Origin: a virus
Lineage: Duplodnaviria; Heunggongvirae; Uroviricota; Caudoviricetes
IMG/VR virus record: IMGVR_UViG_2690316311_000002
Length of the DNA stretch: 11,272 nucleotides
Direction: 5' to 3' (one strand)
Numbering within the stretch: the stretch's first letter is position 1; each line of letters starts with the position of its first letter. The translations under genes and the position numbers were made by a program. Positions 9,489 to 11,272 of this stretch are shown here, one piece after another. Under the pieces are notes generated by a model. That model saw only the letters and a program-made list of their open reading frames with translations, did no database searches and had not been told where the DNA came from.

Positions 9489-9502
9489 AAGATAAGATGT
9501 AA

Positions 9503-9988
9503 CTACCTGATATTACTGCTACTGTTGCATGTTACCGTGTTTCCAAATCCTGAATTGCAGTTTGTATATGTGTCAACGCGTGTTGGGTAAGGTTGAGTTA
9601 TAACAGGCTGGCGCGCTTTTTGCTCGATCGCTTGCATTGTGTTTACAGCCTGATAATTCAATAAAGCCTGCTGGAATGCTTGGCTTTGTGCTATTTGTTG
9701 GGCTTGTTCTTGGCTTTGTAATTGAACATAAAGATTCTGAAGCTCAAGTCTTGCCTGTGCGTCACTTATCTTGCCTTCATCGACACCTTTCCCGAGCATC
9801 TTTGCAGCAAGGACATACAGCTTAGGTGTTGGTGCTGATGCCATGCGTGAGTCGTTCTTCACACTGGCATCAAGGCAATTAGCCATATCGCTAAGCTTTT
9901 GATAGCGTTGTTCGCAACTTGCTTGATAGTCACTTACTTTTGCGCATCCAACCAGCAGAAACGGGATAATTAACAGTGATTTTTTCAT
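9503..9988 (-). CDS. Predicted outer-membrane lipoprotein, uncharacterised accessory gene (candidate superinfection-exclusion or lysogenic-conversion factor)
   Basis: Start chosen at the internal ATG (9988..9986) rather than the track's upstream ATG, because AAGGAG lies about 10 nt upstream and the product then begins MKKSLLIIPFLLVGC: a basic n-region, hydrophobic core and lipobox L-V-G-C (signal peptidase II type). Residue +2 after the lipid Cys is Ala, not Asp, implying Lol sorting to the outer membrane in E. coli-type hosts. The mature part has a Gln-rich helical segment and four further Cys. Opposite strand to all structural genes. Confidence 0.7.
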   Translation of the reverse strand: MKKSLLIIPFLLVGCAKVSDYQASCEQRYQKLSDMANCLDASVKNDSRMASAPTPKLYVLAAKMLGKGVDEGKISDAQARLELQNLYVQLQSQEQAQQIAQSQAFQQALLNYQAVNTMQAIEQKARQPVITQPYPTRVDTYTNCNSGFGNTVTCNSSSNIR

Positions 9989-10058
9989 ATGGTTAACTCT
10001 CCTTAGTTTTTCACAGGATATCATGAAGGCAATGCCATTTTAGCCGGAAACTAGATTT

Positions 10059-10325
10059 CTATGTTTCCTTTTTATTATTGCTATACATGGTCTTAAGCGT
10101 TTCAAAAACCATTTTCTTAACCATATCAGATTGTTGTTCTGCCATACGCTCTGCATCATCAATGTAAACGGATGCAGAGCTTTGTTTAGCCAACGATTCT
10201 TCAATCGCTGCAATTATCTCTGAGTTCAGCGACCTGTTATTCATCTTCGCGCGCTGTTTAATTTTCGCGTGGAGTTCATGCGGAAGTCTCAAGTGAAACT
10301 GCGCCTCGTCGTATTTGCTGTACAT
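10059..10325 (-). CDS. mnt: Mnt-like ribbon-helix-helix transcriptional repressor (Arc/MetJ superfamily)
   Basis: Translation from the ATG at 10325..10323 gives MYSKYDEAQFHLRLPHELHAKIKQRAKMNNRSLNSEIIAAIEESL...DDAERMAEQQSDMVKKMVFETLKTMY, which aligns with P22 Mnt as I recall it (...FNFRMPMEVREKLKFRAEANGRSMNSELLQIVQDAL...DAERLADEQSELVKKMVFDTLKDLY). GAGG lies 8 nt upstream of this ATG; the track's longer start (10358) has no RBS and adds 11 residues absent from Mnt. Confidence 0.85.
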   Translation of the reverse strand: MYSKYDEAQFHLRLPHELHAKIKQRAKMNNRSLNSEIIAAIEESLAKQSSASVYIDDAERMAEQQSDMVKKMVFETLKTMYSNNKKET

Positions 10326-10446
10326 CCTTGATGCCTCACCAGTTGGGTGGAATGGCATCGTAACCTACTGGATAAATACTCAATAGTACCATTTCGGTAT
10401 GCAATCACATCATGGTTGCATCATATCATTCTTCTGGAGCAATGAA
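10326..10446. promoter_or_regulatory. Divergent intergenic region between mnt (leftward) and tailspike (rightward); presumed promoter/operator region
   Basis: 121-bp AT-rich spacer between divergent starts. Contains inverted repeats GATGCC-N18-GGCATC (10330..10359) and ATGCAA-N11-TTGCAT (10399..10421) and the tailspike RBS GGAG (10436..10439). No convincing sigma-70 -35/-10 pair could be fixed by eye, so exact promoter positions are not called. Confidence 0.4.
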
Positions 10447-11272
10447 ATGTCAGATATCACCGCAAATGTTGTGGTCAGCATGCCTTCGCAACTCTTCACT
10501 ATGTCTCGCTCTTTTAAAGCCGTAGCCAATGGAAAAATTTATATCGGTAAAATTGACACTGACCCGGTAAATCCAGAAAACCAGATTCAGGTTTATGTGG
10601 AAAACGAAGACGGTTCTCACGTTCCTGTTTCGCAACCAATCATCATTAACGCTGCTGGTTACCCTGTATATAACGGACAGATTGCCAAGTTCGTAACTGT
10701 GCAAGGCCATTCTATGGCTGTTTATGATGCATACGGTGCGCAGCAGTTCTATTTTCCGAATGTGCTAAAGTATGATCCAGATCAGTTTAAGGGCAATCTC
10801 CTGAGCGAAGATCACTCACTTGGCGACTCTCTAGTCATGCATAACCCACAGTTTGTCGATAGCACATCGACCATTCTCTCAAAAAAGCTAACTATCGACC
10901 TGAGGACGCTTACAGACTACGGGTTTGCTGAGGGAAACACCGGTGCTCAGAACAAAGCTGCATTTCAGAAGGCTATTGATGATGCTACGTTGCCAACTGA
11001 GATTGTTATACCAGAGGGGGCGTTCATTGTTGACCCTGGTATTACGATTAAGAATACTGTCACCATGATACGAGGTGCTGGCGCATATCAGTCCAGAATT
11101 TTCTCTACGGGTACAGCGGCACCGATAATCACGCAACAAGATGGGGTAATTACGTTCTGCGAGTTCAGGGACTTTGGTCTTGACGGAAATGGCTACGCAG
11201 CTAACGGCATCAGTCTTACTGAAGCCAACCACATTAAAATAGAAAATATTGACGTGGTTAATACTAATAACA
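10447..11272 (+). CDS. Tailspike protein (P22 gp9-like head-binding domain plus a divergent receptor-binding/catalytic domain), 5' partial, continues past the window
   Basis: Translation from the ATG at 10447 gives [97 protein letters not shown]...[10 protein letters not shown], closely matching the P22 tailspike N-terminus I recall ([59 protein letters not shown]...). GGAG lies 7 nt upstream. Absent from the ORF track only because it has no stop in the window. Confidence 0.9.

Follow-up and report, generated by a model that had tools for sequence, protein, structure and literature searches.

A lipoprotein gene in the sieA place of a P22-like Escherichia coli prophage appears to be a cargo cassette independent of its neighbour mnt

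When a small repressor gene and a gene for a membrane-targeted protein lie side by side in a phage cargo hotspot, are they a regulator-effector module or two neighbours? The question is raised by positions 9489-10446 of a tailed-phage DNA stretch of 11,272 nucleotides (nt) (IMG/VR record IMGVR_UViG_2690316311_000002; the whole stretch is here called the window), where mnt, encoding a ribbon-helix-helix (RHH) repressor, is followed by a lipoprotein gene. A sequence-only reading of this DNA had proposed that both genes are probably transcribed leftward as one accessory unit, resembling small defence or exclusion modules. Here we report that the lipoprotein gene and mnt occur apart in many P22-like prophages, and comparison of these loci indicates that the lipoprotein gene is a separate, horizontally exchanged cargo cassette, independent of mnt. 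Our preferred account, to which we give about even odds (roughly 0.5), is that the gene is autonomous prophage cargo, transcribed leftward in the lysogen both by read-through from the mnt promoter Pmnt and from a promoter of its own, and that its product acts as a SieA-like exclusion factor. What is new is not the pairing with mnt but an uncharacterised family of lipoproteins that can take the place of sieA in its slot.

Two leftward genes between gene 16 and the tailspike gene

Positions 9489-10446 are exactly the bases between the stop codon of gene 16 and the ATG of the tailspike gene (10447). The genes of this interval and its borders are as follows.

7641 to 9488, plus strand: gene 16-type ejection (DNA transfer) protein (phrog_770, E = 6e-279; PGAP coding sequence), the last late gene before the interval.
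9503 to 9988, minus strand: lipoprotein gene, 161 amino acids (aa), phrog_6067, with a helical N-domain, a Gln-rich helix and a small C-terminal Cys-pair loop; RefSeq/PGAP calls the same coding sequence.
9989 to 10058, minus strand: spacer between mnt and the lipoprotein gene, 70 nt, without an intrinsic terminator (terminator scan, RNA folding, Rfam).
10059 to 10325, minus strand: mnt, 88-aa RHH repressor with a Mnt C-terminal domain (Pfam PF03869 and PF11423; PGAP start at 10325).
10447 to 11272, plus strand: start of the tailspike gene (head-binding domain; Pfam PF09008, E = 5e-68), the right border of the interval.

The sequence-only reading had placed both genes correctly, and both are genuine, as their Pfam, PGAP and PHROG matches and the lipobox cysteine attest; they share a strand, and the spacer is exactly the 70 nt that had been counted.

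Mosaic neighbourhoods of the lipoprotein gene

Homologs of the lipoprotein form 94 clusters from Escherichia, Citrobacter, Serratia, Cronobacter, Klebsiella aerogenes, Pectobacterium, Yersinia, Morganella, Providencia and Tatumella. In every locus examined (about 20 Enterobacterales lineages) the gene stands immediately after gene 16 and convergent with it; its upstream side takes several forms: (i) mnt lies directly upstream on the same strand in the window (70 nt), in Proteus phage Brookers (17-nt gap) and in Providencia rettgeri (215 nt). (ii) mnt and one or two extra same-strand genes form tight clusters in O104:H4 2011C-3493 (mnt-orf104-lipoprotein, with a 4-nt overlap and a 25-nt gap), in ETEC1730 (gaps of 2 and 4 nt) and in Pectobacterium (four genes). 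(iii) A gene on the opposite strand separates mnt from the lipoprotein gene in VSe13, Gally (the prophage of E. coli LF82), 720R6, Ecol_881, Citrobacter and K. aerogenes. (iv) No mnt is called upstream in Yersinia ruckeri, Morganella, Cronobacter and Serratia marcescens, where a tailspike gene or a Bro-N (antirepressor-like) gene lies divergent instead. (v) Conversely, Sf101 and IME10 carry the mnt allele of the window without the lipoprotein gene.

The same variety is found among close relatives. In a set of 80 IMG/VR loci with a lipoprotein identity of at least 96%, we count six architectures (41 window-type, 15 Ecol_881-type, 10 Gally-type, 9 O104-type, 2 ETEC-type and 1 with the tailspike gene directly upstream); in one of the other two loci a distant mnt homolog lies 650 nt upstream, and the last locus is too truncated for classification. 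Of 5426 complete E. coli genomes, 186 (3.4%) carry the lipoprotein gene and at least 109 the window-type junction; only 5 of 50,697 phage records have the gene, and a genome contig scan gave 5 loci. Nucleotide homology of the window to other phages and to E. coli prophages breaks at 9504 and at about 10005-10027, which delimits a cassette made of the lipoprotein gene and 17-39 nt of leader. Base composition has no anomaly over this cassette.

These loci bear directly on the idea that mnt and the lipoprotein gene are one obligatory leftward operon, a functional pair in which Mnt controls the effector. Its attractions are the common strand, the 70-nt distance and the lack of a terminator, together with the abundance of the window junction in E. 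coli genomes and IMG/VR loci and the tight same-strand arrangements of O104:H4, ETEC1730, Pectobacterium and Brookers. It is contradicted by the lineages of groups (iii), (iv) and (v), in which the genes are interrupted or one of them is missing, and, as described below, by the operator, by transcript levels in LF82 and by the layout of P22, so that we judge it quite unlikely. The module that had been proposed is thus not supported, on the ground that its genes occur apart, that breakpoints flank the cassette, and that no Mnt operator lies near the lipoprotein gene; its likeness to defence modules finds no support either, as PADLOC has no defence-system match for the lipoprotein or for Mnt.

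In Morganella (locus positions 3960-4000), the last ~20 nt of mnt (CTATATAATGATAAAAAATAA) are kept ahead of the lipoprotein gene and are identical to those of Brookers (2960-3000). This piece is what an mnt deletion left behind, and the TATAAT within it now stands in a promoter-like context.

A leader shared with P22 sieA and a candidate internal promoter

The ~29 nt directly upstream of the lipoprotein gene of the window (TTCATGATATCCTGTGAAAAACTAAGGAG) are homologous to the sequence upstream of P22 sieA (TTCATGGTATCCTGCACAAAACTAAGGAG); two non-homologous cargo genes consequently have one upstream linker in common. Two features of this region are of interest.

9999 to 10004, minus strand: Shine-Dalgarno sequence AAGGAG of the lipoprotein gene, recognised from the letters and conserved in the leader alignment.
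10015 to 10023, minus strand: extended -10-like element TGATATCCT, candidate internal promoter of the lipoprotein gene, inside the stretch homologous to P22 sieA (motif TGnTAnnnT, here TGnTATCCT).

When 12 otherwise divergent upstream regions are aligned, the TG, A(-11) and T(-7) of this element are invariant (12/12), T(-12) is kept in 10 of the 12, and the hexamer interior varies (TATCCT, TAAAAT, TAAATT, TATTCT, TAATCT, TAAAGT, TATGCT). In 8 of 18 distinct lineages the motif TGNTANNNT begins 31-37 nt ahead of the start codon, the background frequency being 0.0013 per position; this enrichment has a nominal P of ~2e-12, calculated from sequences that are homologous and hence not independent. 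Eight of the 10 polymorphic sites in the 41 window-type spacers fall upstream of the element, and the single change within it affects the free n position. Where the lipoprotein gene is packed tightly behind another gene (O104:H4, Pectobacterium) the motif is absent, and in ETEC1730, tightly packed too, only a degenerate TGGGATCAT remains.

In P22, 85 bp upstream of sieA are enough for 10^7-fold exclusion from a single copy (PMC10883804), a result that speaks only to the sufficiency of the 85 bp for expression.

Two observations concern the same region. In two IMG/VR loci (L078 and L090) a precise 7-nt deletion close ahead of the lipoprotein start removes the TATCCT element (tcatgcacaaaactaagg), and these prophages presumably depend on transcription from upstream. 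Direct repeats of the form TTGCN-N5-TTGCN, at 10-bp spacing, occur in VSe13, Cronobacter and the two Tatumella prophages, where they adjoin the -10-like element on its upstream side, ~40-65 nt before the lipoprotein start; in the window these repeats have degenerated, and they could be bound by a regulator.

Read-through from mnt

A terminator scan of 9300-10700 found no terminator-like site on either strand, in agreement with the sequence-only reading, and Rfam gave no credible match in the spacer. What structure there is consists of two weak elements.

10028 to 10036, no strand: palindrome GGCAATGCC (GGCATTGCC on the plus strand), without a T-tract.
10046 to 10068, minus strand: weak hairpin GGAAAC...GUUUCC over the mnt stop codon (6+3 bp, z = -1.5, no U-tract by RNA folding), not terminator-like.

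The palindrome is the hairpin-like element that had been pointed out before; it is present as described, although broken by substitutions in several otherwise identical prophages. We considered it as a regulatory hairpin and rejected it because it is unconserved among window-type spacers; by this comparison it probably has no functional role. On the 3' side of the lipoprotein gene there is likewise no nearby terminator, the sole minus-strand site being weak and 720 nt further on, inside gene 16 (CTACCAATATGGTAG).

As no terminator follows mnt, read-through from mnt into the lipoprotein gene is likely. The proposal of one leftward transcription unit survives to that extent, in line with the tight operons seen elsewhere, but a single obligatory unit does not fit the conserved promoter-like element in the spacer and the varied neighbours.

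Expression of a close homolog in a lysogen

The only family member with expression data is GALLYPH_13 (LF82_138) of the Gally prophage, a 96% identical protein in the same slot. In two replicates of LF82 grown to stationary phase in lysogeny broth (LB), its log2(fpkm+5), where fpkm stands for fragments per kilobase per million, was 6.29 and 5.96, and it rose to 7.9-8.2 in two further bacteria-only conditions (PMC9928086). The normalised value in LB stationary phase was 70, compared with a prophage median of 15.6, 13 for mnt and 14 for gene 16 (tables S1/S4 of PMC9928086), which places the lipoprotein gene ~5-fold above mnt and 4.5-fold above the prophage median. The prophage thus transcribes this family member at a higher level than mnt, whereas the late genes next to it are at background. 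The expectation of lysogen-phase expression agrees with the data on this homolog, and its excess over mnt speaks against a pair expressed as one operon.

Such expression also bears on two other roles. One is that the lipoprotein serves the phage's lytic cycle, either by masking receptors against loss of progeny on debris, as T5 Llp does, or by aiding ejection or assembly. This would suit a gene that always adjoins those of the ejection proteins, and T5 Llp offers a precedent. It is very unlikely, in our judgement, considering that the gene lies on the strand opposite the late operon, that the LF82 homolog is expressed in the lysogen with late genes at background, and that the gene is absent from P22 and most sequenced P22-like phages (5 of 50,697 records carry it), and so is not needed for growth.

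The other is that the lipoprotein is a conversion factor for host fitness or virulence, for instance a Bor-like outer-membrane lipoprotein that aids survival in serum or macrophages, rather than a factor against phages. In macrophages GALLYPH_13 reached log2(fpkm+5) values of 10.3 at 1 h and 8.6 at 6 h (log2FC 2.55, q = 4.7e-27; PMC9928086), the rise at 1 h being from 6.1 to 10.3; carriers of the gene include the pathogens O26 enterohaemorrhagic E. coli, the O104:H4 outbreak strain 2011C-3493 and adherent-invasive E. coli LF82; and there are known morons that encode outer-membrane lipoproteins, lambda Bor among them (cited in PMC7067206). Against this role, curing LF82 of Gally leaves its survival in macrophages at the wild-type level (PMC9928086), the family is bound to one P22-like slot across hosts as unlike as Pectobacterium, Y. 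ruckeri, Morganella, Tatumella and Serratia, and that slot is the one of P22 sieA, with a leader sequence in common. We therefore regard a conversion factor as unlikely; if the gene were an ordinary one of this kind, the finding would be routine prophage mosaicism. With the lambda-type morons (bor) the gene shares its accessory nature, sharp homology breakpoints and probably expression from the prophage, to judge by the LF82 homolog; it differs from them in that no terminator of its own was found and that several lineages have it as part of the mnt operon, where it does not stand alone.

mnt, its promoter and its operator

If the lipoprotein gene is separate cargo, what does mnt regulate? The N-terminus of the window protein matches the Arc-type RHH domain PF03869 (E = 1.1e-14, 54 bits with a cut-off of 20.4), its C-terminus matches the tetramerisation domain Repressor_Mnt PF11423 (E = 3.9e-12), and the protein is 47% identical to P22 Mnt over 76 aa (E = 2e-28). 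The region upstream of the gene also aligns with the annotated operator and promoters of P22.

10357 to 10383, minus strand: homolog of P22 Pmnt, aligned to the promoters of the P22 record, with -35 TTGAGT (10383-10378), a 15-nt spacer and -10 TACGAT (10362-10357).
10385 to 10400, no strand: homolog of the P22 Mnt operator, AGTACCATTTCGGTAT, aligned to the annotated P22 operator AGGTCCACGGTGGACCT; imperfect TACC-N5-GGTA dyad in a single copy.

We favour the 88-aa start at 10325, because PGAP calls it, a GAGG Shine-Dalgarno sequence precedes it, and the ATG of the alternative 99-aa open reading frame (ORF), at 10358, overlaps the -10 of the Pmnt homolog; this longer form is less likely. Between the divergent Pant and Pmnt hexamers (window 10344-10383), 2 nt that P22 has are deleted in the window and in Sf101, which leaves both promoters with 15-nt spacers, and on account of this deletion the activity of the Pmnt homolog is uncertain. 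The Pant homolog is decayed in the window, with -35 ATGGCA where P22 has TTGACA; with ant gone, no gene but that of the tailspike is left for it to drive.

The operator homolog is not repeated near the lipoprotein gene; a second Mnt operator within the spacer was considered and rejected, since no copy was found there, which again counts against Mnt control of an effector. mnt encodes the immI maintenance repressor, with its operator facing the tailspike side, and is not a dedicated regulator of the lipoprotein.

Inside gene 16, at 8767-8781, there is a perfect 15-bp palindrome, CTACCAATATGGTAG, that shares the TACC-N5-GGTA core of the operator homolog (10387-10399). These are the only two sites with this core in the window, where 0.03 would be expected, and the palindrome could be another site for Mnt or could mark where the leftward transcript ends. 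Homologs of Mnt are widely mislabelled as "partition protein ATPase" or "chromosome segregation ATPase", among others in the P22 record, Sf101 and phrog_795.

The sieA slot and a possible role in exclusion

The P22 record (NC_002371) reads, from the left, rightward gene 16, leftward sieA with its own annotated promoter, a terminator, and leftward orf59a and mnt; further right follow the overlapping Pmnt and Pant promoters with the Arc and Mnt operators, then arc, sar and ant, and finally the tailspike gene. The interval of the window resembles the left arm of this immI region in its place between gene 16 and the tailspike gene, in a leftward cargo gene convergent with gene 16, in its homologous mnt and its homologous Pmnt/Pant/operator region, and in the stretch upstream of the cargo. 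In spite of these similarities, there are differences: (i) the cargo of the window is a lipoprotein unrelated to SieA. (ii) arc, ant, sar and orf59a are absent; the window and the O26 prophage described below alike have neither arc nor ant in the interval from mnt to the tailspike gene. (iii) The window has no terminator after mnt, only 70 nt from mnt to the cargo, and 15-nt spacers in its Pmnt and Pant homologs. In P22, a terminator and the separate sieA promoter part mnt from sieA, a further point against an obligatory pair. We read the interval, from these alignments, as a trimmed P22 immI/sieA region from which arc, sar, ant and orf59a are missing and in which the lipoprotein gene has the place of sieA.

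The SieA proteins, of types A-C (Leavitt et al. 2024, PMC10883804), are likewise prophage-expressed, located in the envelope and found in only a subset of P22-like phages. Among systems that block DNA injection by short-tailed phages, P22 SieA is the only one studied so far (PMC10883804); it is a polytopic protein of the inner membrane, whereas the window protein is a lipoprotein with no hydrophobic segment other than its signal peptide and is predicted to reach the outer membrane. The two proteins show no sequence similarity by tblastn with P22 (type A) SieA, the sole type compared; what they have in common is location and orientation just after gene 16 and homologous upstream signals.

The place is a cargo hotspot, as the sequence-only reading had it: P22 sieA sits there, and relatives carry other cargo ORFs, mostly for envelope proteins and none with a Pfam family. 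That the family has the slot and leader of sieA in an envelope cargo hotspot, accompanies diverse hosts and tailspikes and is dispensable for phage growth leads us to infer that the lipoprotein may be a superinfection-exclusion factor against P22-like phages.

Small phage lipoproteins that block the entry of related phages are well known: T5 Llp, Cor of phi80, N15 and HK022, and Ltp of Streptococcus phage TP-J34. Their targets are FhuA or the tape-measure protein of long-tailed phages, and P22-like podoviruses have neither. None of them has detectable homology to the window lipoprotein, whose PHROG search returned phrog_6067 only. Ltp of TP-J34 is cited as a lipoprotein exclusion factor in PMC10883804.

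In the account that we prefer, autonomous cargo with a SieA-like function, Mnt would occupy its operator on the tailspike side in the lysogen, and leftward transcripts from Pmnt would cross mnt and, for want of a terminator, run on into the lipoprotein gene. Expression independent of Mnt would be added by the internal extended -10 element (TGATATCCT, 10023-10015). The precursor would be exported, lipidated at Cys15 and, with Ala at +2, sent to the outer membrane, and two conserved Cys pairs would be oxidised in the periplasm. The lipoprotein may then interfere with an outer-membrane or periplasmic step of P22-like DNA delivery, as an envelope counterpart of the inner-membrane SieA.

Several points weigh against this account: (i) No homology or experiment ties the family to exclusion, and Pfam, PADLOC, PDB and BFVD gave no match. 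(ii) The candidate promoter has no good -35 (CTAAAA), and a generic promoter scan did not call the site. (iii) The sieA promoter of the P22 record (13861-13891) ends just upstream of the conserved TGGTATCCT, so that the functional element of P22 may differ from the one conserved here. (iv) Gally has an opposite-strand lipoprotein gene (gp14) between the homolog and mnt, and its upstream element is TGCCATGAT, not TGATATCCT; the expression data consequently transfer to the family only, and not to the promoter of the window. (v) The authors of the LF82 study describe Gally as having no moron, with GALLYPH_13 just under their 5-fold cut-off (PMC9928086). (vi) tblastn with P22 SieA found it in none of the 80 IMG/VR lipoprotein loci, a check of mutual exclusivity that covers type A only. 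(vii) Near-identical lipoproteins occur beside very different gene 16 alleles (490-906 aa), which gives no sign of co-evolution with an ejection-protein target.

Only tentatively, and with some doubt, do we extend the argument to the whole family: its 94 close clusters and 249 remote representatives, which have the Cys-paired N-domain in common, might be a new and widespread group of outer-membrane or periplasmic anti-podovirus exclusion proteins, which would block the P22-type trans-envelope DNA channel from the outer-membrane side and be interchangeable with SieA by means of a common promoter/leader that serves as a recombination linker. A non-homologous lipoprotein behind the sieA leader is in any case a testable candidate for a second, outer-envelope block to podovirus entry, and could serve as a probe of the assembly of the gp7/gp20/gp16 channel. 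More generally, the proximity of a regulator to an effector in a phage hotspot does not by itself make them a module.

The lipoprotein and its family

The signal sequence supports the assignment as a lipoprotein.

9944 to 9988, minus strand: signal peptide and lipobox MKKSLLIIPFLLVG-C, identified from the sequence; across 38 homologs C15 never varies, and G14 is conserved to at least 90%.

The residue after the lipidated cysteine (+2) decides between outer- and inner-membrane fates of a lipoprotein. Here it is Ala (Val or Thr in relatives), and by this rule the protein is predicted to be sorted to the outer membrane. Invariant cysteines in the 38 homologs are C15 (lipobox), C25, C38 and C154, and a further one near 143 aligns in most; this pattern suggests two disulfide pairs and points to a periplasmic location. 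An AlphaFold (AF2) model has a mean predicted local distance difference test (pLDDT) score of 64, with ~85 for the N-domain and 82-90 for residues ~20-100. It shows a confident helical N-domain (residues ~18-100), a long Gln-rich helix, a disordered C-terminus and no hydrophobic helix beyond the signal peptide.

The protein matches a single PHROG, the function-unassigned family phrog_6067 (E = 1.6e-110). Pfam, NCBIfam and PADLOC hold no family for it, a profile search against PDB sequences gave no match, the AF2 model had no fold match in PDB or BFVD with E below 0.4, and in the literature we found no paper on this lipoprotein or its accession. A profile search collected the 249 remote representatives, lipoproteins 125-180 aa long that share the N-domain and the C-terminal Cys pair, which are unnamed metagenomic proteins without Pfam domains. 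A weak match to GspK (18.8 bits, with a cut-off of 130) was dismissed as spurious; a Cronobacter homolog is mislabelled GspK.

Other cargo at the hotspot

The hotspot of Gally/LF82 holds a second, unrelated lipoprotein that is highly expressed in LF82; those of Citrobacter and Pectobacterium also encode lipoproteins, O104:H4 a secreted 104-aa protein, and ETEC1730 an apparently membrane-spanning 81-aa protein (two hydrophobic stretches by eye). In Ecol_881-type loci (L030, 2584-2949) an opposite-strand ORF of 121 aa lies between the lipoprotein gene and orf59a; it has an HExxH motif (AHECAH) and no Pfam match. The coordinates of the envelope-targeted cargo ORFs of these hotspots are as follows.

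L002, 3620 to 4039: cargo ORF.
L009, 3497 to 3886: cargo ORF.
L028, 3012 to 3326: cargo ORF.
L031, 2554 to 2799: cargo ORF.
L022, 3993 to 4346: cargo ORF.

Genomic setting of the window

The ORFs of the window are those of a P22-type late operon: scaffold, coat, gp4, gp10, needle, gp14 and the ejection proteins gp7, gp20 and gp16. The window gene 16 protein (615 aa) has no Pfam-A match in a local scan, and several gene 16 homologs elsewhere carry PF26808 (Phage_P22_gp16). A 1.1-kb region around the mnt/lipoprotein interval is 100% identical to many E. coli O26 chromosomes, and the window can be assigned by this identity to a complete P22-like (Lederbergvirus) prophage of E. coli O26, which adjoins a tRNA-Arg gene. 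Beyond the window, on the O26 chromosome (locus L005, 23242-27387), the tailspike gene is followed by an acyltransferase gene, probably for O-antigen modification, and the prophage ends at intS beside tRNA-Arg. This end directly abuts a second integrase and prophage.

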